A stretch of DNA of 9,623 nucleotides from a virus (Duplodnaviria; Heunggongvirae; Uroviricota; Caudoviricetes). The stretch spans positions 1 to 9,623 of the IMG/VR virus record IMGVR_UViG_2802429248_000004; one strand, written 5' to 3'. The notes under the pieces were generated by a model that saw only the letters and a list, made by a program, of their open reading frames with translations, had not been told where the DNA came from and did not search any database. Positions 1 through 9,623 of the stretch are shown here, in pieces; the stretch's first letter is position 1; the number at the start of each line of letters is the position of its first letter. A program made the position numbers and the translations under genes.

Positions 1-141
1 TTACTGCTTACACTGTAAGAACGCCGCAAACTCCGCTCCCCAGAAGCTCATCCGTATTTCGCACAGCGAACCGTGCAACATCCAGATGATGAGGATTGCC
101 GTCACGCAGAACGTGATGGCCGTAAGCGATTTTTGCGACAT
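1..141 (-). CDS. Hok/Gef-family type I toxin (small membrane peptide), 46 aa
   Basis: Reverse-strand ORF ATG at 139-141, TAA at 1-3, translated by hand as MSQKSLTAITFCVTAILIIWMLHGSLCEIRMSFWGAEFAAFLQCKQ. Hydrophobic N-terminal segment followed by SLCEIR and EFAAFLxCK closely matches the Hok family pattern as I recall it (R1 Hok ...SLCEIR...EVAAF...; HokA ...WMIRDSLCEL...ELAAFLACK). AAGGAG Shine-Dalgarno about 8 nt upstream on the coding strand. Not in the supplied ORF track because it is under the length cut-off. Confidence 0.7.
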   Translation of the reverse strand: MSQKSLTAITFCVTAILIIWMLHGSLCEIRMSFWGAEFAAFLQCKQ

Positions 142-271
142 AGCACTTGCTCCTTTTCCGGAGAGGCGCTAACCTTTCACTTGTCAAGGTAATGCGGTTA
201 GGGCCTCGGTTAAACAGAAATGTTTTCCGGGGCCTTTCCACATCTGGCCTTCGGGTATTCCCTCCGACCAT
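8..271 (-). CDS. mok-like reading frame overlapping hok in another frame (putative translational coupler); possibly not translated
   Basis: 87-aa ORF from the track covers the whole hok ORF in a different frame and starts about 130 nt upstream, which is the hok/mok architecture known from plasmid R1. No convincing SD before the ATG at 269-271; no sequence similarity claimed. Confidence 0.2.
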   Translation of the reverse strand: MVGGNTRRPDVERPRKTFLFNRGPNRITLTSERLAPLRKRSKCYVAKIAYGHHVLRDGNPHHLDVARFAVRNTDELLGSGVCGVLTV

Positions 272-331
272 CAGCCGAAAGGCACCCGCGCGTAATCTAT
301 CTCTTTTTTGTTACTCCGGCAATTCTGCCTG

Positions 332-592
332 TTAATTTTGAGGTAAGGGCAAACTCATCTGATTGTTTCCTTTGTGTGAAGCTGGCAGTTCATGCCACGG
401 GATACCTTCTGAAGAGTGAGCGCCGGAGGCGTGTTTCGATGTGAATTTATGGAAAGCTTCCAGTGTTGAGAAGCATACGCCGCATTCTAGGTTGTTACAT
501 TGGTAATACTTTTGCCGCACGGTGTTTGAATCATTTTCCGGACGACTGGTGCGGATTCGGGCAGATGCGCCACAAAGCGGACAACGGAACAT
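332..592 (-). CDS. ogr: Ogr/Delta-family zinc-finger late-gene transcription activator
   Basis: 86-aa ORF beginning MFRCPLCGASARIRTSR...YYQCNNLEC, matching the P2 Ogr N-terminus (MFHCPLC...ARTSR...HQCQNVNC) with the four-Cys zinc-finger spacing. Strong SD AAGGGAGG 5 nt upstream of the ATG on the coding strand (plus-strand 596-603). Confidence 0.9.
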   Translation of the reverse strand: MFRCPLCGASARIRTSRPENDSNTVRQKYYQCNNLECGVCFSTLEAFHKFTSKHASGAHSSEGIPWHELPASHKGNNQMSLPLPQN

Positions 593-622
593 AGCGACCT
601 CCCTTACTGTGGTGCTTCTGTG

Positions 623-651
623 ATTTTAAGTCCTACTAGTACAGATTCCAA
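623..651 (-). promoter_or_regulatory. putative sigma70 promoter for ogr (-35 TTGGAA, 17-bp spacer, -10 TAAAAT on the minus strand)
   Basis: Hexamers read by eye on the reverse complement of 623-651, placed about 20-30 nt upstream of the ogr SD. No experimental support. Confidence 0.25.
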
Positions 652-776
652 CTGGCAAGGTGTTTTTAATAAGGAATGGTCGAAATCTTTACATGGTGAT
701 GAGTTTTTCCGAAAATAGCTCCACCCAACTTACTAGTGTATTTACAATAAATTTTATTTTAGTTCTGGAGTGTGAA

Positions 777-2015
777 ATGATATCGTTTATAACGAATAAT
801 ACAGGAGTTGTATTTAAGTATGAACCTGAAATAGGGAGTGTAAATTGGGTATGGAATGAATTTGAAACTAAAGAAACTGTAAGTATTTCTAAAGTGTTTC
901 ATTTCTATATTAGCGATTTGCTCAATTCCCCTTTACCTAACCAAGATTTTAATGATTATGCTTATGAGTTCCAATTCGGGACTTTTAGTGATGATTATAT
1001 TTTGATAAAGGGTCGTATATTAAATATTAAAAACGACTTGTATATTAGTAAAGATATCAAATTAAGTCGGGCAACCTTTGTTGCTGAGAGAAATGTTTCT
1101 ATTTTTGGTGGAATTTCGCGAATATTAAATCACAGTGACCCAATTTTTATTGGTGGAGAGGTTAAGGAGGCAATTCCTTCTGAAGTTTTTAGTGAGTTAC
1201 TGAGCAAATTTCCTAATTCATATGAATTGAATAACTATGCTAAGGCTAGAGTACACACAATTCTTGAACTATATTTAGATGGTATGAGAGATGCTCGAAG
1301 ACTTTACGATGCATACCTCAACAAAATAAAGCTAAAGAAAAAAAACAAACTTGATTTAAGCTGTATTAAAAAATTAGAGGTGGATAAATATATTTTTATT
1401 AGAGATAGCATTAAAAATGCTTTAGATACAAAGCAGAACATGTCTGAAAAAGAGTGGCAAGAACTGATGGTGCAGTTCCTTCCCCTTTTATTTCCCAAAT
1501 ATATTCTTGTGATAGAAAGCATCACTATCCATGATTACTATAGTTTTCCTGGCAAGAAAAGGAAACGATTCATAGATATAGGTTTGGTTGATGCTTGTGG
1601 CAATTTAGATATTATTGAAGTAAAAAAACCATTTGACAATAAGATATTGCGCAAGGCTAAGTATCGAGAGAATAACATACCAACTCCAGAGTTAAGTGGT
1701 AGTATTATGCAAGCTGAAAAATATCTCTTTCATTTATCAAAATGGGGAAGAAAAGGTGAAGATATCCTTACTAAAAAATATGCATCCAGACTACCTGATG
1801 GAATGAGTATTCATATTTCGTATCCCAAAGCGATTCTCATTATTGGTCGTGACCAGATTGATGATAGATATATGACAGAAGATCAAAAACTCGATTTCGA
1901 AATTATTAAGCGGAAATATACTAATATGATCGATATCATTACCTATGATGACCTCTTGAGACGGCTTGATCATACAATTTCAGCACTTACACTTAAAAAC
2001 GAAGCATCTGTGTAG
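777..2015 (+). CDS. AT-rich cargo gene: predicted PD-(D/E)xK nuclease, Shedu (DUF4263)-like candidate anti-phage defence protein; N-terminal half unassigned
   Basis: Long ORF in markedly AT-rich DNA between phage genes D and ogr. Track ORF starts at GTG 660, but ATG 777 has a GGAG SD 6 nt upstream and is preferred (alternative ATG 693). C-terminal half carries EKEWQELMVQFLPLLFP, then FIDIGLVD-x5-LDIIEVKKP (D ... E-V-K catalytic core, nt ~1575-1625), then MQAEKYL (QxxxY, nt ~1710-1724), then ILIIGRD and a terminal IITYDDLLRRL, a combination I recognise from DUF4263/Shedu nucleases. Stop TAG at 2013-2015. Confidence 0.75.
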   Translation: MISFITNNTGVVFKYEPEIGSVNWVWNEFETKETVSISKVFHFYISDLLNSPLPNQDFNDYAYEFQFGTFSDDYILIKGRILNIKNDLYISKDIKLSRATFVAERNVSIFGGISRILNHSDPIFIGGEVKEAIPSEVFSELLSKFPNSYELNNYAKARVHTILELYLDGMRDARRLYDAYLNKIKLKKKNKLDLSCIKKLEVDKYIFIRDSIKNALDTKQNMSEKEWQELMVQFLPLLFPKYILVIESITIHDYYSFPGKKRKRFIDIGLVDACGNLDIIEVKKPFDNKILRKAKYRENNIPTPELSGSIMQAEKYLFHLSKWGRKGEDILTKKYASRLPDGMSIHISYPKAILIIGRDQIDDRYMTEDQKLDFEIIKRKYTNMIDIITYDDLLRRLDHTISALTLKNEASV

Positions 2016-2057
2016 AAAGAAGAGTTTTGGTCTGGTGCGTCAACATAACGTTTGAAA

Positions 2058-2083
2058 CGTCCGCTTCTTTCACGAAGCGGATT
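2058..2083. terminator. candidate bidirectional stem-loop between the convergent cargo gene and gene D
   Basis: Inverted repeat TCCGCTTC (2060-2067) / GAAGCGGA (2074-2081) with a 6-nt loop; moderately U-rich flanks on both strands; lies in the 129-bp gap between two convergent stops. Confidence 0.3.
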
Positions 2084-2144
2084 CTCGGGTTAGCATTGTT
2101 CTGTGCTATAAACTTGGCAGTTTGAGTCAGCATATCTAAGTTAT

Positions 2145-3245
2145 TTACTCTGTTTCTGCTATCCATTCCGGGATTTTTGCCTCAAGCTCAAGCTGCGTGG
2201 TAAAGCCACTGTTATCAATGGTGTGCTCGGCTTTTGCAATAATCCAGCCCTGATTATCAATCTCGCTTTTAAATCCTGTTACCGTGCCATGCATTTCGGG
2301 GTAGAGTTCTGCACGTCCACGTGCCAGCGTGATGGAGAATGATGCGGCTCCGCGTTGTAGCTGCTGCCACTTTGCCGCCGCTGCACGTCTTGCTGCCTGC
2401 TCGTTCTGATAAGTCTTGCGTAACACAAACACGTTGCCTTCCGCACCTTCCATATAGTCACCTTCACGGCTGCTGCTTTTCTCCTTTTTCGGTTTGCGGC
2501 GTTTCACGCTGACTTTTTTCTTTTTCCCGTAATTAAGATCAAGCCAGTAAGCGCGTACCCCCGTATACGCTTCGCGGTCAGCAATGCGGAACTGATGGCG
2601 ATCGCCACTGCTGCGCGTGATGGCGAACGAGGGCAACGGCTGGCCCTGTGCGTTCACGCCACCGCCTGGCATGATGAATAACAGATTACCGCTTTTTACC
2701 GTAGTGATTGCGCCCAACATTTCCGCCATGCGCGTAAGGAAGGACATGTCGCTTTCTTCGGTCTGGTCGGCGTGGTCGATTTCAATATCCATCAGCATTT
2801 CGCTGATTTGCGGTTTCAGACCGTACCGATGAGCGATGGCGGATACCACGCGCTCAACGGTCACATCATGCCAGGACACTTCACGTTTAACGTTAAATTC
2901 ATCCCGAAAATCTGCGCTTCTGGCTGAAACAGTCAGCCTGTCCGGCGGTCCTTCGTGAGCGATTTCATCAACAATGTAAGTGCCTTTTTCTGTCAGCGGT
3001 TCTCCTTTCCAGCCAATGAGAACCGTCAGGCGCGCGCCCCGTGGCGGTAGCTGCAACTGACCATCTGCATCATCCAGCGTGATGGTAAGCTGGTCCGCCT
3101 CAAATCCCCGGTTGTCGGTCAGTGACAGGCTCATCAGGCGTTCTGCCACGCCGGACAGCGTTTTACCCTCCGCGAGAATATCAAAATCCGGCATTTTCAC
3201 GGGGTCTGTGCTCTGACTGAGCAATTGCATGGTGGTATCGGTCAT
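2145..3245 (-). CDS. D: P2 gpD-family late control / tail protein D
   Basis: Translation shares extended blocks with P2 gpD as I recall it (LTDNRGFEADQL, SWHD, FLTR, GVRAYW, REGDYMEGAEGNVF, SGFTTQLELE). Track ORF extends to 3377, but the ATG at 3243-3245 (MTDTTMQLL...) is preceded by a very strong SD (AGGGAGGGAG on the coding strand, plus-strand 3246-3258). Stop TAA at 2145-2147. Confidence 0.9.
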   Translation of the reverse strand: MTDTTMQLLSQSTDPVKMPDFDILAEGKTLSGVAERLMSLSLTDNRGFEADQLTITLDDADGQLQLPPRGARLTVLIGWKGEPLTEKGTYIVDEIAHEGPPDRLTVSARSADFRDEFNVKREVSWHDVTVERVVSAIAHRYGLKPQISEMLMDIEIDHADQTEESDMSFLTRMAEMLGAITTVKSGNLLFIMPGGGVNAQGQPLPSFAITRSSGDRHQFRIADREAYTGVRAYWLDLNYGKKKKVSVKRRKPKKEKSSSREGDYMEGAEGNVFVLRKTYQNEQAARRAAAAKWQQLQRGAASFSITLARGRAELYPEMHGTVTGFKSEIDNQGWIIAKAEHTIDNSGFTTQLELEAKIPEWIAETE

Positions 3246-3402
3246 CTGCTCCCTCCCTGTGCGGCATGGTCGCATGTGTGTGCGGGCGGGGTTACTGCTT
3301 TTTGTTGTCGCCGGGCGGCAAGAACGGCGCAGGGGTGAGATTACGCGCGTGGTGGGTGATGATTGTTGCCGAATCATTTAACGGATACAAGGGGCTGAAG
3401 CT

Positions 3403-4587
3403 ATGAGTGAAACTCGTTTTCATGGTGCCCGTGTTACGGAAAATACCGACCTGGTAACAGCGATTAACGATGTTGATTCCAGCGTTATCGGTATCGTGGC
3501 AACGGCGGATGATGCGGACGCGAAGCTGTTCCCGCTGAACAAGCCCACACTGCTGACCCGCGTCAATGACGTGCTGGGAAAATGCGGAACAACGGGGACG
3601 CTTTATCGTGCGCTTAAGGCCATCGCAGACCAGGTGAGCACAAAGGTGATCGTCGTTCGCGTGGCTGAACACAAAGAAGAAGACGGAAAGACGCAGGATC
3701 AACTGGTTATCGGTGGTTCTGAGGATGACGGCAGCTATACGGGGATGTATGCGCTGCTTGTTGCAGAGCAGGATGAAAGCATCGGATACCGTCCGCGTAT
3801 TCTGGCCGCGCCGGAGCTGGACACGGAGGCGGTGACAAAATCCCTGTGCGTGATTGCGGGTAAACTGCGCGCGTTTGTGTATGCCTCATGTCACGGCTGT
3901 AACACGATGGCTGAAGCGATTACCTACCGCCAGAAATTCAACGAACGTGAAGTGATGCTCTTGTGGCCGGACTTCATCGCCTACAACCCGAAAGGTGGCG
4001 AAAACGAAACGTTCCCCGCGCCTGCCTATGCGTGCGGCCTTCGTGCGTACATTGACCATGAGCAGGGCTGGCACAAATCGCTGTCCAACGTTCCGGTTAA
4101 AAATGTGCTGGGGATGTCCAGGCATGTGTTCTGGTCGTTACAGGCCGAAGACAGCGATGCCAACAGCCTCAACAACAAAGAAATCACGACCATTATTCGT
4201 CGCAACGGGTTCCGCTTCTGGGGCAACCGCACACCGGAAACGAACGCCTACATCTTTGAGGTGTATACCCGAACCGCACAGGTGCTGGCTGATTCAATTG
4301 CGGAAGCGCAGTTTGAAACCATCGACAGTCCACTGACGCCTGCGAACGTGAAGGATGTTATCAGTGCCATCAGGGCAAAGCTGGATTCACTGGTTACTGC
4401 CGGGAAACTGATTGGCGCGGAGTGCTGGTATGACGTGGTGGATAACAGCACCACGGATTTACGTCAGGGGCGTGTGCGTATTCGCTACAAATATACGCCC
4501 GTTCCGCCACTGGAAGACATGGAGCTTTACCAGACGTTTACTGATGAATACTTTGAACCCGCATTTGCGGTGTTGGGAGGTGCCTGA
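3403..4587 (+). CDS. FI: contractile tail sheath protein (P2 FI family)
   Basis: 394 aa; strong similarity to P2 FI throughout as I recall it (DADA..FPLNKP, RILA.PELDTEAV, KLRAF.YAS.HGC, GWHK.LSNV, IRR.GFRFWGNRT, YTPVPPLE). SD AAGGGG 9 nt upstream. Confidence 0.95.
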   Translation: MSETRFHGARVTENTDLVTAINDVDSSVIGIVATADDADAKLFPLNKPTLLTRVNDVLGKCGTTGTLYRALKAIADQVSTKVIVVRVAEHKEEDGKTQDQLVIGGSEDDGSYTGMYALLVAEQDESIGYRPRILAAPELDTEAVTKSLCVIAGKLRAFVYASCHGCNTMAEAITYRQKFNEREVMLLWPDFIAYNPKGGENETFPAPAYACGLRAYIDHEQGWHKSLSNVPVKNVLGMSRHVFWSLQAEDSDANSLNNKEITTIIRRNGFRFWGNRTPETNAYIFEVYTRTAQVLADSIAEAQFETIDSPLTPANVKDVISAIRAKLDSLVTAGKLIGAECWYDVVDNSTTDLRQGRVRIRYKYTPVPPLEDMELYQTFTDEYFEPAFAVLGGA

Positions 4588-5099
4588 TGGCTGTGCCAAA
4601 ACATCTTCGCTTTTTTACGCTGTTTGTGGATGGTGAAAACGAAGTGGGTAAGGTGACGTCCGTCACTCTGCCTAAGCTGACGCGCAAAACCGACAGCTAC
4701 CGGGGTGGTGGCATGATGGGGGCGGTAAGTATTGATCTCGGTCTGGACGACTCCGCGCTTGATGCGAGCTTTGTCATGGGGGGCGCAGTTCGTGAGCTGT
4801 TCCTTAAGTATGGCGGCACGATTGACGGCACGCTGCTGCGTTTTGCGGGTGAATACTACACCGATGCAGAAAGCGACCTGTATGAAGTCGAAATGCGCGG
4901 ACGTGTGACGGAAATTGATATGGGGGAAGCCAAACAGGGCGAAGCCACATCACACACTTACGCCATTAAAAACACCTACTACAAGCTGAGTGTTAACGAT
5001 CGCCCGTTGTGGGAGATTGACCTGCTGAACTTCATTTACCGGAAGGACGGCAAGGACATTGCGCCCGATCGCATCCGTTCCGCGCTTGGGCTTGGCTGA
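4587..5099 (+). CDS. FII: tail tube protein (P2 FII family)
   Basis: 170 aa; ATG overlaps the FI stop (TGATG); SD GGGAGG 6 nt upstream; similarity to P2 FII (VTSVTLPKLTRK..YRGGGM, LRFAG.Y, EIDMGEAKQGE). Double stop TGATAA. Confidence 0.95.
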   Translation: MAVPKHLRFFTLFVDGENEVGKVTSVTLPKLTRKTDSYRGGGMMGAVSIDLGLDDSALDASFVMGGAVRELFLKYGGTIDGTLLRFAGEYYTDAESDLYEVEMRGRVTEIDMGEAKQGEATSHTYAIKNTYYKLSVNDRPLWEIDLLNFIYRKDGKDIAPDRIRSALGLG

Positions 5100-5154
5100 T
5101 AAGTAATATGCAGGCGGCGCAGTGCGTCGCCTCTGACTGAAAAGGAGACCACTG

Positions 5155-5529
5155 ATGAAAAACATCGATACTGAAACCCAGAATAACACCGTGGCGGATG
5201 ATGTGACGGCAGATGAGGATATGGCTGTCGAACGTGGTGTAAAACTTTCCCGGCCAATTGAGCGTGGCGGCGAAAAAATCACGTATGTGGAGATCACCGG
5301 GGCTATTGAGCAGGCTGGATCCCTGCGAGGTTTGTCGCTGTCTGATGTGCTGAATCTGAAAGCGGATACCATGTTCACGCTGTTGCCTCGCGTGACTTCG
5401 CCACGACTGGATGAAGTGATGATTAAAAAAATGTCGTCACGCGATTTTATTCAGTTGTGCGCTGTGGCTGTAAATTTTATGAGCGAGCCAGACTCTGGCG
5501 CGAAGAGCGTGCAGGAGACGGCAGCGTAA
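5155..5529 (+). CDS. E: tail assembly chaperone gpE (P2 E family)
   Basis: 124-aa ORF with AGGAG SD 7 nt upstream; sits between tube and tape-measure genes as in P2/lambda (E or G chaperone position); its 3' end overlaps an RBS-less ORF in the -1 frame. Confidence 0.85.
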   Translation: MKNIDTETQNNTVADDVTADEDMAVERGVKLSRPIERGGEKITYVEITGAIEQAGSLRGLSLSDVLNLKADTMFTLLPRVTSPRLDEVMIKKMSSRDFIQLCAVAVNFMSEPDSGAKSVQETAA

Positions 5530-5693
5530 TCACCCTGGTGTGCTTTGAGCACATCGAAGATCTGGTGGCGGATATTGCCGCCATTTTTAACTGGTCGCCC
5601 GCCGAAATCTTCATGATGACGCCCGGCGAAGTGGTTAGCTGGCGTGAGCGGGCGGCACTTCGCAGCGGGAATGCAGACAATGAAGACTCTTGA
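5427..5693 (+). CDS. gpE' extension, expressed as an E+E' fusion by programmed -1 ribosomal frameshift
   Basis: The -1 frame relative to E is open from 5427 (just after a TAA at 5424-5426) to TGA at 5691-5693 and has no credible independent start or SD; it overlaps the 3' end of E and ends at the tape-measure start. This mirrors P2 E/E' and lambda G/GT. Candidate slippery sites in the E frame: A7 run at 5425-5431 and A-AAT-TTT at 5472-5478. Confidence 0.5.
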   Translation, partial: KNVVTRFYSVVRCGCKFYERARLWREERAGDGSVITLVCFEHIEDLVADIAAIFNWSPAEIFMMTPGEVVSWRERAALRSGNADNEDS

Positions 5694-8487
5694 TATCCGG
5701 GTCGCTTTCAGCGCCGTTGACAGGCTGACCCGGCCTGCCGAAAACGCCCGCCGCCTGATGGGGCAGTTTGGTGACTCTATCCAGCGAACGCAGGGGGCGA
5801 TCAAAAATCTCGAGCGTCAGGCGCGTTCATTTGAGCGCGCCCGTGACGCTGTCAGTAAAGCGGATGCGGGCATCGTAAAAGCACGACGCCAGCTTAACGC
5901 CCTTAATCAGTTACAACGCACGGGTACAGTGCTCAGCGAAAAACAGCAAAAGCTGATGCAGCAGTTAAGCACCCGGCTTGAACGCCTGAATGAATCGCGC
6001 ACACGGGAAATTCAGAAAATGCGGGAGCTTGGCGGAGAGCTGAAACGCCACGGCATTTCCCTGACAGGCAGCGATAACACCATCCAGCAGACCATCAGAC
6101 GCACCGAACAGTACAACAACCAGCTTGAACGCGAACGGCAGGCGCTTGCGCGTGTAACGCGGGCGCGTGAGCGGTATTCGCGCGCGCAGGAAATTGCGGG
6201 AAAACTGAAAACAGGTGGTGCGCTGGCAATTGGTGCGGCAGCGGCTGGCGGTTATGCCGCCGGGCGTTTTTTGCAGCCTGCGATCGGGTTCGGGAAAGAG
6301 ATGTCCCGCGTTCAGGCGCTGACGCGAATCGACAAAAACAGCCCGCAGTTTAAGGCGCTGCGTGAGCAGGCGTTAAAACTTGGCTCTGAAACGCAGTTCA
6401 CCGCAGGCGATGCCGCCAGTGGACAGGCATTTCTTGCAATGGCTGGCTTCACTCCGCAGGCCATTCAGGCTGCGCTTCCCGGCGTACTGAGCATGGCAAC
6501 GGCTGGCGGTATGGATCTCGGCGAGACGGCAGATATTGGCTCAAATATCCTGACGCAGTTCGGCCTTTCTGCTGACCAGATGGACCGGGTCGGTGACACA
6601 CTCACCGCAGCGTTTACCCGTACCAACACTGACCTTCGCGCACTGGGCGAAACCATGAAATATGCAGGTCCGGTGGCGGGTAAGCTGGGAATATCGCTGG
6701 AGCAGGCCGCAGCGATGGCTGGCGTGCTGGCGAATATGGGCATCAGAGGGAGTGATGCCGGGACGGCAATGCGTGCCAGCCTGGCTCGTCTGGCATCACC
6801 GCCAAAGGCAGCGGCAGAAGCGCTGAAAGAGCTGGGCGTGTCCGTCTCGGATGCCGGGGGCAAAATGCGCCCGATGGAAGATCTGCTGGCTGACCTTTAT
6901 AAAGCTACCCGCAAATACGGGGAAGTTGACCGGGTATCCTTCTTTAAGGACATCGCCGGGGAAGAGGCTTTCACATCGTTTATGGCACTCGTTGATGCGG
7001 CGGGTGACGGTTCCTTACCCAAACTGAGAAAAGAACTTGAGGGCGCACGCGGTGAGGCTGAACGCACGGCAAAGGTTATGGCCGACAACCTTGATGGCGA
7101 CCTGAAAAATCTCGACAGCGCATGGGAAGGTCTTCGTATTCGCATCAGTGATCTGGTTGACGGTTCGCTGCGTTCTGTCACGCAGTGGCTAACGCGGGTG
7201 GTCTCAAAAGTGACGGCACTGGCGCAGGCCCATCCTGTACTGACGCGCCAGCTACTGATTGCAGGCGGTGCGCTGCTGGCAGTGACTGCAACCGTAGGCT
7301 CGTTGTCGCTTGCTCTTGGTGTGCTTGCTGGCCCACTGGCAAAACTGCGTCTTGGTTTTTCCCTCCTGACCGGATCAATGAATGCTGTCAGGCTCCTGCC
7401 TGCACTATGGGGAATGGTGACGGGTTCCGTTTCGTTACTGGGGGGCGCTATCGGGGCGCTGTTCAGCCCGGTCGGATTGATTGCTGCTGCGTTTGTGGCT
7501 GCGGCAGTTCTCATCTGGAAATACTGGGAACCCATCAAGGCGTTTTATGCCGGGGTGTTCAGTGGGATTATGGAACGGCTGGCTCCGTTGCGCGAAACCT
7601 TTGAACGGTTCGGTCCTGTTTTTGATGTCGTGCGCGATGGGATTATTCAGGTCTTTAACTGGTTTAAATCGCTGCTGTCACCGATGGAGTCCAGCAAGGA
7701 AACGCTGGATAAATGTACCAGTGCTGGCGAGATATTCGGTAACGTTCTTGGTGGCGCGCTACAGCTTGTTCTGACGCCTGCAAAAATGTTGCTGGATACG
7801 CTGGCGTGGATACTTGAAAAACTTGGCGTCCTTCCGGATGAAGCGGAAAGGGCGCGCAAGAAAATCGAAGACGCGCAGCGTGCGGCCATTCTTCAGGATA
7901 AGGTCGCTCTGTTTCAGGGAGACATTGCGAAAATCAATCCGCCGAAGCCTGTGGAAAATGGCAATGGCACCGGAGGTGATAACCCCAAAGACAACAAACC
8001 GCTCACAGACAGCAATACCGGTACGCTACGCAGACTAAGCAAAATTGCTGATAACACAGGCAAGCTGGTTGATGAGACGAAAAAACGCATTGGCCCCGGT
8101 GATATTGTCTTTAAGAACCTGCCCCGCGCACTTGCCGTTCGTGGGGAGTGGCAGGATCGGAAGATTGCGCAGGCCAGTAAGCCTGCTCCCGCAATTAATA
8201 TCACCCCCGTGGTTCCGGCTCCGCTGCCTCCGGCGCTGGTCCCTGTTGTTGCGGCCAGCTCCCGCCCGGTGGCGGAGGCCATACGATCGCCAGTGGCATC
8301 AGTTCCTGCAACTTCCCGTAACCGGGAGCCTGTTACCTCCGGATTTGGTGGTGAAATTCATGTCCATCTGCATAACGTTGTTACGCAGAATCCCCGCGAA
8401 CTGGCGAAACTGGTCGGTGAAATGGTCAGGGCAGAATTGGAACGACGCGACCGTGCCGGACGTGGCAGTTTTTACGATAAAGATTGA
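5680..8487 (+). CDS. T: tail tape measure protein (P2 gpT family)
   Basis: ~935-aa ORF directly after E/E'; coiled-coil-like N-terminal third, a central block of hydrophobic/Gly-Ala-rich segments, and a Pro/Ala-rich C-terminus, typical of tape measure proteins. Start uncertain: ATG 5680 (preferred, GGGA about 9 nt upstream), ATG 5671 or GTG 5644 in the same frame. Confidence 0.9.
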   Translation: MKTLDIRVAFSAVDRLTRPAENARRLMGQFGDSIQRTQGAIKNLERQARSFERARDAVSKADAGIVKARRQLNALNQLQRTGTVLSEKQQKLMQQLSTRLERLNESRTREIQKMRELGGELKRHGISLTGSDNTIQQTIRRTEQYNNQLERERQALARVTRARERYSRAQEIAGKLKTGGALAIGAAAAGGYAAGRFLQPAIGFGKEMSRVQALTRIDKNSPQFKALREQALKLGSETQFTAGDAASGQAFLAMAGFTPQAIQAALPGVLSMATAGGMDLGETADIGSNILTQFGLSADQMDRVGDTLTAAFTRTNTDLRALGETMKYAGPVAGKLGISLEQAAAMAGVLANMGIRGSDAGTAMRASLARLASPPKAAAEALKELGVSVSDAGGKMRPMEDLLADLYKATRKYGEVDRVSFFKDIAGEEAFTSFMALVDAAGDGSLPKLRKELEGARGEAERTAKVMADNLDGDLKNLDSAWEGLRIRISDLVDGSLRSVTQWLTRVVSKVTALAQAHPVLTRQLLIAGGALLAVTATVGSLSLALGVLAGPLAKLRLGFSLLTGSMNAVRLLPALWGMVTGSVSLLGGAIGALFSPVGLIAAAFVAAAVLIWKYWEPIKAFYAGVFSGIMERLAPLRETFERFGPVFDVVRDGIIQVFNWFKSLLSPMESSKETLDKCTSAGEIFGNVLGGALQLVLTPAKMLLDTLAWILEKLGVLPDEAERARKKIEDAQRAAILQDKVALFQGDIAKINPPKPVENGNGTGGDNPKDNKPLTDSNTGTLRRLSKIADNTGKLVDETKKRIGPGDIVFKNLPRALAVRGEWQDRKIAQASKPAPAINITPVVPAPLPPALVPVVAASSRPVAEAIRSPVASVPATSRNREPVTSGFGGEIHVHLHNVVTQNPRELAKLVGEMVRAELERRDRAGRGSFYDKD

Positions 8488-8499
8488 GGAGTCATGGCC

Positions 8500-8988
8500 A
8501 TGATGATGATCTACGGCATGTTTGTTTTTGAGCTGCGCACATTGCCGCATCAGCAGTTACAGCAAAATAAAAGCTGGCGACATGTGAAAAATGAACGCGT
8601 TAACCGTTCAGCAAGCTGGCAGTATATCGGGGCTGGCGATGATCGTATTGTTCTTTCTGGTGTGCTTTATCCTGAAATTACAGGTGGCGAAGTGTCGCTG
8701 TCTCTGCTGGCCACGCAGGCGTATACCGGACGCCCCTGGCCTCTGATTGATGGCGTCGGGCAGATTTACGGCATGTATGTCCTGACCGAAACGAATACGA
8801 CCCGTTCCGAGTTTGATCGCTACGGTAAGGCGAAAAAGATAGAATTTTCACTGACCCTTGAACGCTGTGATGAGGATTTGCGGGAGCGCCTGCAATCCTC
8901 ATCGTTCAGCGATATGCTGTCCGGCTTCAAAGATAAGGTCACATCATCCCTTAACAGCGCGGCCAGCTCCGTTAAAGGGTTGTTTTGA
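8500..8988 (+). CDS. U: tail protein gpU (P2 U family, tail terminator/tube-completion)
   Basis: Similarity to P2 gpU (MMM..G.FVF.L.T.P.Q.LQ...W.H, ITLSG.LYPE.TGG, IYGM.V). GAGGAG SD at 8486-8491 fits the ATG at 8500 (the MMM start, as in P2 U) better than the track start at 8494. Confidence 0.9.
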   Translation: MMMIYGMFVFELRTLPHQQLQQNKSWRHVKNERVNRSASWQYIGAGDDRIVLSGVLYPEITGGEVSLSLLATQAYTGRPWPLIDGVGQIYGMYVLTETNTTRSEFDRYGKAKKIEFSLTLERCDEDLRERLQSSSFSDMLSGFKDKVTSSLNSAASSVKGLF

Positions 8989-8995
8989 CTTAATG

Positions 8996-9027
8996 CAAAA
9001 CCGCTAATAAACATATTGGCGGTTTTG
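8996..9027. terminator. bidirectional rho-independent terminator-like hairpin between convergent gpU and tfa
   Basis: 14-bp stem CAAAACCGCTAATA / TATTGGCGGTTTTG with one G-U position and a 4-nt loop AACA; A-tract on one side and T-tract on the other; lies in the 59-bp gap between the U stop (8988) and the tfa stop (9048). Confidence 0.45.
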
Positions 9028-9047
9028 TTCCTTAAATCATCTTGCCT

Positions 9048-9623
9048 TTACACTAATTCTGGCCATTCGATATCAGGGGCATTTTCCGGCTGAACGCGAT
9101 TCAGTAGCACACGGTATTTTTTCCAGTGTGTCAGGCTTAACTTTTCTTCCTCGGTAGCCATATCTAAATCGACAGCATCCTGCAGCATGGCAATGATTTC
9201 ACCTGCATATGCAATCTGCTCTTTCTTCTGAGACTCAGCCGCTCTGACAAGTGCATCACGCTCTGCATTCTCATCATTCACCCACGCATTGCCGTTCCAT
9301 TTCTGATAATCCCCCTCCGGGGAAATGGCTGTCACGTCTGGAGGTAATGCGCCAAGTTCAGAGATATAAATGGCTGCTCCCGTTTTCGTTTCATAGACGG
9401 TCTTTCCGCGATGGTCTTCCATCAGTTCCCATTTCATTTCATCTGCATTGAAAACGGCTGCATAACCCGCCGGAATATCAGGCGGTGCAATATCTGTACT
9501 GTTTGCAGGCAGACCTGTATGCGGCGGAATATATGCGTCACTTTCACCAATAAATTCATTGGTTCCATCAAGTAAATTGAAAACGCGGATCGTTTGTGCT
9601 TCTGCACTCATTCTGAAAGCCAT
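9048..9623 (-). CDS. tfa: tail fibre assembly protein (Tfa; TfaE-like N-terminus with a P2 gpG-like C-terminus)
   Basis: 191 aa; N-terminus [53 protein letters not shown] closely matches E. coli TfaE-type proteins as I recall them; C-terminus ([18 protein letters not shown]...PDIEWPE) resembles P2 gpG. The start codon is the last three bases of the window, so the upstream region and the tail fibre gene itself are out of view. Confidence 0.9.

Follow-up and report, generated by a model that had tools for sequence, protein, structure and literature searches.

A predicted type I Shedu nuclease gene carried as cargo at the D-ogr junction of a P88-like prophage of Escherichia coli

Does a long AT-rich gene among the tail genes of a P2-like prophage encode an anti-phage defence nuclease? 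This question is raised by a 9,623-nt stretch of Caudoviricetes DNA (IMG/VR record IMGVR_UViG_2802429248_000004, positions 1 to 9,623; hereafter the window), in which such a gene had been predicted to be horizontally acquired and Shedu-like. Our analysis points with high confidence to a functional single-gene type I Shedu (SduA), which a P88-like (Xuanwuvirus) prophage of the P2 family, beside ihfA in E. coli, carries as cargo between D and ogr.

We assigned sduA to the + strand from ATG 777 to the stop at 2015, encoding 412 aa. The original prediction had placed the open reading frame at 660-2015; the frame and the protein length were right, but the start was not, as the GTG at 660 in the six-frame ORF list merely opens the longest possible frame. 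The PADLOC model, the PDB structure and all homologues align to the product starting at the Met of ATG 777. A Shine-Dalgarno sequence of its own, as had been proposed, lies 5 nt before this ATG (GGAG, 768-771, + strand) and is conserved in a related Shedu cassette (L002). The low GC content estimated by eye (~30% compared to >50% in the flanks) agreed with the measured values of 32.1% for sduA (777-2015), 54.1% for 2145-9623 and 50.2% for 1-592. By a rough estimate, the chance of a 412-codon open frame at the composition of sduA, where ~7.6% of codons are expected to be stops, is ~1e-14. We observed a dN/dS of 0.18 between sduA and its nearest relative (0.22 in the N-terminal domain, 0.15 in the nuclease domain). 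This shows that sduA is a coding gene, with purifying selection acting on each of the three parts of its product. A pseudogene or spurious ORF was rejected based on dN/dS and the invariant residues described below.

The product had been predicted to be a DUF4263 nuclease of the Shedu type. Pfam PF14082 (SduA_C, formerly DUF4263) matched it at 109 bits (cut-off 27; E = 3e-31) over profile positions 2-159 of 159. Among defence-system models, the PADLOC SduA model PDLC04067 matched end to end (E = 1e-208, model positions 1-406 of 407), and the best PADLOC models were those of single-gene SduA. The best match among solved structures was the E. coli SduA structure 8PS4 (E = 1e-154, aligned over 8-409, 61% identity over 400 residues). 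These data establish family membership. Full-length members of the family number at least 1,538, in Enterobacterales, Pseudomonas, Burkholderiales and beyond.

We compared the product with EcSduA, the characterised SduA of E. coli KTE10 (8PS4, 8PS5 and 8PS6; 10.1101/2023.08.10.552762), which is the same length, is also a single-gene system and consists of a clamp, a helical linker and a DUF4263 PD-(D/E)xK domain. In the alignment, the order of N-terminal sensor, helical linker and nuclease was collinear with EcSduA. Using the domain limits of the EcSduA paper, the N-terminal domain, a putative DNA-end clamp and sensor (aa 1-144; 777-1208, + strand), was 51% identical to EcSduA residues 1-145; identity was 60% in the linker and 67% in the C-terminal DUF4263/PD-(D/E)xK nuclease domain (aa 193-406; 1353-1994, + strand).

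The active site of EcSduA consists of E226, Q230, D269, E283, K285 and Q314, and alanine mutants of its PD-(D/E)xK residues abolish defence (10.1101/2023.08.10.552762). All six residues are conserved as E224, Q228, D267, E281, K283 and Q312, so the active site is intact. In EcSduA, W25 stacks on the DNA end, and R106, K116, R154, Y181, Y256 and K263 line the DNA path; of the single substitutions at DNA contacts, none but R106A abolishes immunity (10.1101/2023.08.10.552762). W24, R105, Y180, Y254 and K261 are the conserved counterparts here, while K116 is replaced conservatively by R115 and R154 by N153. Across an alignment of 29 homologues (60-75% identity), the six active-site residues, W24, R105, Y180 and Y254 were invariant and K261 was nearly so; positions 115 and 153 were the variable exceptions. 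The motifs listed in the original prediction (EKEWQ, D, E-V-K, QxxxY, IIGRD and ITYDDLL) are real and map onto functional residues of EcSduA: E224 and Q228 lie in S-E224-K-E-W-Q228, followed by D267, E281-V-K283 and Q312-xxx-Y316. IIGRD (354-359) and ITYDDLL (388-394) were invariant or nearly so among the 29 homologues.

An AlphaFold2 monomer model of the product (pLDDT 78) retrieved 8PS5 and 8PS4 first (E = 6e-47), with 8PS6 among the matches, and next the Bacillus cereus Shedu structures 8TI8 and 8TI9. The isolated N-terminal domain in 8PS6 aligned collinearly, with a target-normalised TM of 0.76. Because the linker (aa 149-192) was modelled with low confidence and the global TM to 8PS5 was only 0.5, both the arrangement of the domains and the tetramer are predictions. 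What is shared with B. cereus Shedu is the fold of the nuclease core (Foldseek E = 1e-6, target-normalised TM of up to 0.73). The two proteins are 17-20% identical and have unrelated N-terminal sensors, and another activation mechanism has been described for the B. cereus protein (10.1101/2023.08.10.552793). Every computational check named in the original prediction (profile search, defence-system models and structure prediction) thus came out in its favour, and we observed none of the contrary outcomes that it had listed.

By analogy with EcSduA, to which it is 61% identical, the protein would form a homotetramer whose N-terminal domains clamp only a free end of double-stranded DNA, with W24 stacking on the end. 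Clamping would place the 5' strand over the PD-(D/E)xK site (E224, Q228, D267, E281, K283 and Q312), where, in the presence of Mg2+, it would be nicked ~13-14 nt from the 5' end. The circular DNA of the host would be spared; P2-family phages, which package from circular monomers, would likewise expose few free ends. By contrast, phages that expose linear or recombination-dependent replication intermediates would be blocked without cell death. EcSduA itself blocks T2 and T6, and T6 escapes through uvsW mutations (10.1101/2023.08.10.552762).

The phage range of this allele, and even its end preference, could differ from that of EcSduA, because only 61% of its residues (51% in the sensor domain, its most diverged part) are identical to those of the tested protein, and because R154 is replaced by N153. 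A true Shedu nuclease whose diverged N-terminal sensor gives it an altered trigger or target spectrum is a possible reading that we consider the less probable one; such a protein might, for example, favour another end structure, or have plasmids, linear DNA or competing temperate phages as its main targets instead of T-even phages. The lower conservation of the N-terminal domain compared to the nuclease domain (51% and 67%) and the substitution at N153 fit this reading, as does the identity of only 75% to the nearest other cluster. Shedu orthologues also vary in phage range, and their N-terminal regions are the variable part (10.1101/2023.08.10.552762). However, W24, R105, Y180, Y254 and K261 are kept, the whole N-terminal domain is collinear with 8PS6, and its dN/dS of 0.22 gives no sign of diversifying selection.

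We also assessed the signals that could drive expression of sduA. A candidate sigma-70-like promoter (TTTACA, a 17-nt spacer and GAAAAT; 688-716, + strand) was found in the promoter scan as a 9/12 consensus match. Such matches, which do not in themselves indicate a working promoter, were about as frequent in shuffled sequence (12 found, compared to a shuffled mean of 7.5, sd 2.9). Both hexamers and the Shine-Dalgarno sequence were identical in the 79%-identical L002 Shedu cassette, which lies in a non-phage context and whose surrounding bases have diverged. This conservation weakly supports autonomous expression of sduA, and the gene would be transcribed in the lysogen from its own candidate promoter, antisense to the phage late genes.

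With its 32% GC, sduA could be subject to H-NS silencing in E. coli. An intact sduA that stays unexpressed in the lysogen, for example through such silencing, would be a silent passenger without defence in this host. The GC content and the frequency of comparable promoter matches in shuffled sequence are compatible with this, but the identity of both hexamers and the Shine-Dalgarno sequence in a copy with diverged surroundings, the dN/dS of 0.18 and the recurrence of the identical protein on 8 contigs in the same context make it unlikely.

Hairpins had been predicted on both sides of the gene. Downstream, we found a perfect 8-bp stem with a 6-nt loop (TCCGCTTC-TTTCAC-GAAGCGGA; 2060-2081) between the convergent sduA and D; upstream, no fold in 593-776 was better than shuffled sequence. 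The downstream hairpin has no T-run, and its fold was not unusual on the + strand (z = -0.25; z = -2.9 on the - strand). This is not a canonical terminator, though it may serve as a barrier to transcription. The terminator scan found no canonical terminator on either side of sduA. A search of the whole window against Rfam at gathering thresholds gave no match, hok/sok RNA included.

The carrier had been described as a P2-like prophage, and we could place it more closely. The tail module of the window was 93-95% identical to Escherichia phage P88, Xuanwuvirus P884B11, Citrobacter phage Shae_phiSM and related phages; P88 and these relatives belong to the genus Xuanwuvirus of the Peduoviridae. 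The left conserved flank of the cargo is ogr (332-592, - strand), which encodes an 86-aa zinc-finger late-gene activator (Ogr_Delta, 52.3 bits, cut-off 26.3) and is 95% identical to P88 at the nucleotide level. The right conserved flank is gene D (2145-3245, - strand; tail/baseplate hub, 366 aa; Phage_GPD, 62 bits, and gene calls in L003-L006), which is 97% identical. As had been noted, sduA lies between the two on the opposite strand, antisense to both. Outside the cargo, a Hok/Gef-family toxin gene of 46 aa (1-141, - strand; PF01848 in the identical contigs L003-L006) marks the prophage end that adjoins the chromosomal ihfA, and Hok/Gef is the annotation in E. coli and P88. With D-ogr-hok on one strand and FI-FII-E-T-U divergent from D, the layout is odd for P2 but normal here, because Xuanwuvirus shares this arrangement. 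We found the identical SduA protein on 8 contigs with the same surroundings, and in contigs with the identical protein the element directly follows thrS-infC-rpmI-rplT-pheST-ihfA.

Alignment to the empty site of P88 established the insertion boundaries at 617-2134 (1,518 bp extra). When the window was compared by BLAST with other cargo-bearing E. coli prophages, the variable cargo segment spanned 655-2133 (+ strand, 33% GC). The nearest relative of sduA is a cluster of 406-aa proteins (E. coli ABW_A32, LR-06, NCTC9104 and others) with 75% amino acid identity, 79% nucleotide identity over 682-2019 and the same -35, -10 and Shine-Dalgarno elements. It differs in its surroundings, a non-P2 island where its neighbours are an integrase fragment, an AAA ATPase and a HEPN protein, which shows that promoter and gene move between contexts as a unit. 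The unit common to the sduA region and the non-phage island Shedu of ABW_A32 is 682-2019 (promoter and ORF), while a different cargo cassette (L001) has the last 79 nt of the insert (2056-2134, with the hairpin) in common with it. Based on these two matches, the insert is a mosaic in its own right.

We then surveyed the same junction in complete E. coli genomes. A megablast of the locus against 5,426 genomes matched the flanks without sduA in 1,202, and found no copy of this sduA at ≥85% identity. A distant blastn search of complete E. coli genomes gave 10 copies at 79-80% and ~50 EcSduA-type copies at 66%. From the 1,205 matching E. coli records we drew 60 at even spacing: the junction was empty in 33 and held one other gene in 13; in the remaining 14, the best-placed match covered the ogr side only, a pattern indicative of larger cargo or of a D that has diverged. 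The cargo examples included a bSEFIR/TIR protein (PADLOC E = 1e-44), a DUF3800 protein of 389 aa, a HEPN-like protein of 340 aa (RiboL-PSP-HEPN match below threshold), three unannotated proteins (384, 221 and 201 aa), and an HxsDBCA radical-SAM cluster with IS2. Cargo proteins of the junction other than SduA include WP_000532200.1, WP_001556999.1, WP_001057121.1, WP_000069998.1 and WP_204641166.1. The D-ogr junction of P88-like prophages is therefore a variable cargo site, which may be empty or hold Shedu or other cargo. These data bear out the earlier view of sduA as a moron at a fixed hotspot: P88 and many E. coli prophages do not have the 1.5-kb segment, and at the same junction other single genes take its place as cargo.

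PD-(D/E)xK nucleases serve many phage functions, and sduA sits among phage late genes, so we considered a nuclease of the phage life cycle, acting in replication, packaging or host-DNA degradation rather than in defence. This is very improbable. P88 lacks sduA, as do most related prophages in the evenly spaced sample; sduA runs antisense to the late genes; its close relatives are found outside phages, beside HEPN and AAA-ATPase genes; and the homology to an experimentally validated defence protein is full-length.

We rejected, as the most improbable reading, the nuclease half of a two-component system such as KELShedu: two-component Shedu derivatives exist in E. coli (PMC12577705), but the architecture is identical to that of stand-alone EcSduA, the best PADLOC models are single-gene SduA, and the 1.5-kb insert holds neither a KELA-like partner gene nor a second plausible gene. 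Within the insert (617-2134), the only other ORFs are antisense and of 57-73 aa, leaving sduA as the only plausible gene in a single-gene layout.

There are precedents for Shedu as P2-family cargo. EcSduA is itself such cargo: a 99%-identical copy occupies the Z/fun hotspot of an E. coli prophage, between a tail-fibre assembly gene and FI. The two differ in site and strand, with sduA at the Xuanwuvirus D-ogr junction antisense to the late genes and the EcSduA type at the Peduovirus G-FI (Z/fun) position on the late-gene strand. They also differ in GC content (32% compared to 39.5%) and, as described above, in sequence (61% identity, 51% in the sensor) and at two DNA-path positions (R154 to N and K116 to R), while the six active-site residues, W25 and most DNA-path residues are kept. 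An older example is ORF1 of the Z region of P2-EC31 (AJ512677; Nilsson et al., 2004), annotated as a 'putative lysogenic conversion protein', which is a Shedu 60% identical to the sduA product. Long inverted repeats flank the gene in that record, whereas none were found around the sduA cargo, only short matches at chance level.

The novelty implied by the original prediction was not upheld. The NCBI entry for the exact protein reads 'TPA: Shedu immune nuclease family protein [Escherichia coli]', and the next NCBI cluster is 75% identical. An NCBIfam search with the product matched no model, so its PGAP name must come from another rule. The gene is already known: it is a recognisable allele, named in public annotation, of a defence nuclease whose structure and mechanism have been characterised. 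The presence of defence cargo in hotspots of the P2 family is likewise well documented (PMC9122126; 10.64898/2026.02.27.708500; 10.1101/2024.10.15.618418). The D-ogr junction resembles the classical P2 hotspots (old/tin between gpA and portal, and Z/fun between G and FI; PMC9122126) in holding AT-rich, swappable, mostly single-operon defence cargo between conserved genes, and differs in lying outside both. A third hotspot, between a tail protein and CI, is mentioned in 10.1101/2024.10.15.618418 and may be the same site. The main texts of PMC9122126 and 10.64898/2026.02.27.708500 do not mention Shedu, ogr or gpD, and we could not confirm from them that the exact D-ogr site has been described by name before.

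The edges of the insert carry short sequences that may be linked to cargo exchange. Junction alignments showed a left copy of a short imperfect direct repeat (ATTTTAAGTC, 623-632) of the empty-site sequence ATTCTAAGTT, and a right copy (ATCTAAGTT, 2134-2142) immediately before the D stop codon. Empty sites carry ...ATTCTAAGTTCCTCAC... once, whereas at cargo-bearing sites imperfect copies of the motif flank the cargo on either side. Adjoining the left copy on its inner side is a junction module of ~21 nt (TACTAGTACAGATTCCAACTG, 634-654), which is present in L001 and L010-L015 whatever the cargo and absent from the empty sites of P88 (L009) and cq9 (L017). In the promoter scan, the reverse complement of the left repeat held a -10-like TAAAAT (628-623) upstream of ogr. 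On the - strand, TTCCAA of the module reads TTGGAA, a -35-like element 17 nt from this box, giving a promoter-like site at 651-623. As a hypothesis only, the module may supply an ogr promoter once cargo breaks read-through from D. We tentatively extend this to the whole junction, in a proposal that is on balance doubtful: it might be a dedicated cassette-exchange site, bracketed by the TCTAAGTT direct repeat and with a left module of ~21 nt that perhaps provides the -35 element of ogr, and its unannotated cargos might be new anti-phage systems.

By itself, sduA adds little, being one more allele of a solved defence nuclease in a phage family known for defence genes. Together with the EcSduA type, it shows that Shedu recurs as P2-family cargo at two sites and in two genera, with Z/fun used in Peduovirus and D-ogr in Xuanwuvirus. 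The modestly interesting part is the D-ogr junction with its unannotated cargo, where several unannotated single genes beside known defence genes make a cheap list of candidates for new defence systems. If the cassette-exchange proposal is true, new anti-phage systems would be represented by the HEPN-like 340-aa protein, the 384-, 221- and 201-aa proteins and the 389-aa DUF3800 protein.

The D-ogr junction of P88-like prophages varied in its cargo when the window (617-654 and 2134-2142) was compared with loci L001, L009-L015 and L017. We observed that the junction was either empty, as in P88 and cq9, or occupied by Shedu (the window), bSEFIR, DUF3800, a HEPN-like protein, three unannotated proteins or Hxs. 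The cargo-bearing variants had a left module of ~21 nt in common, which reads TACTAGTACAGATTCCAACTG in the window (634-654), and the empty-site motif TCTAAGTT recurred as an imperfect direct repeat on both sides of the cargo (window copies at 623-632 and 2134-2142). At the right end of the cargo segment, a 79-nt stretch (2056-2134), which includes an 8-bp hairpin (2060-2081), was ~94% identical to the right end of a different cassette, that of the HEPN-like gene in L001. Because this stretch occurs in two different cassettes and is not in P88, these data suggest that cargo cassettes swap through recombination inside common ends.

We also identified a sigma-70-like site for ogr on the minus strand (623-651; TTGGAA, 17 nt, TAAAAT). 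Its -35 box falls inside the conserved junction module, which is present in cargo-bearing variants only; at empty junctions, 43 bp separate the end of D from ogr and this box is lacking. A promoter for ogr may therefore come from the cargo module.

On the other side of the cargo, D and the FI-FII-E-T-U operon are divergently oriented, their starts ~157 bp apart (window 2145-3402). This layout differs from P2, where F-E-T-U-D form a single operon, but is normal for Xuanwuvirus (P88), and from it a bidirectional late-promoter region can be inferred at about 3246-3402. Within the tail genes, the tail-chaperone pair, an ORF of 124 aa (5155-5529) and a GpE-family ORF of 51 aa (~5538-5693), the latter overlapping the tape-measure gene at its start, looks like the P2 E/E' programmed-frameshift arrangement, with a putative frameshift.

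Within 8989-9623, the P88 homology of the window ends near 9026. A DNA invertase immediately follows gpU in P88, L001 and L003 (a contig encoding an identical SduA), whereas the window lacks an invertible-segment recombinase at this position and instead has a tail-fibre assembly gene (9048-9623, minus strand) that shares 95% identity with Peduovirus P24A7b. This prophage has a mosaic tail-fibre module. At the prophage edge, adjoining chromosomal ihfA, is a 46-aa Hok/Gef-family toxin gene (1-141, minus strand); scanning the window yielded no hok/sok RNA family at the Rfam gathering score.

PADLOC matched none of five other single-gene cargos of the D-ogr junction. Pfam matches were obtained for two, RiboL-PSP-HEPN (sub-threshold; L001:8485-9507) and DUF3800 (above cut-off; L010:2026-3195), and for none of the remaining three (L012:2001-3155; L013:1943-2608 and L014:1951-2556, both minus strand). 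On position alone, all five are candidate uncharacterised defence genes. In E. coli S22EC, the classical P2 Z/fun hotspot, between a tail-fibre assembly gene and a sheath gene, is occupied by a gene (L016:4581-5807) that shares 99% identity with EcSduA, whose structure has been solved. Therefore, the model Shedu protein, EcSduA, is itself also P2-prophage cargo.
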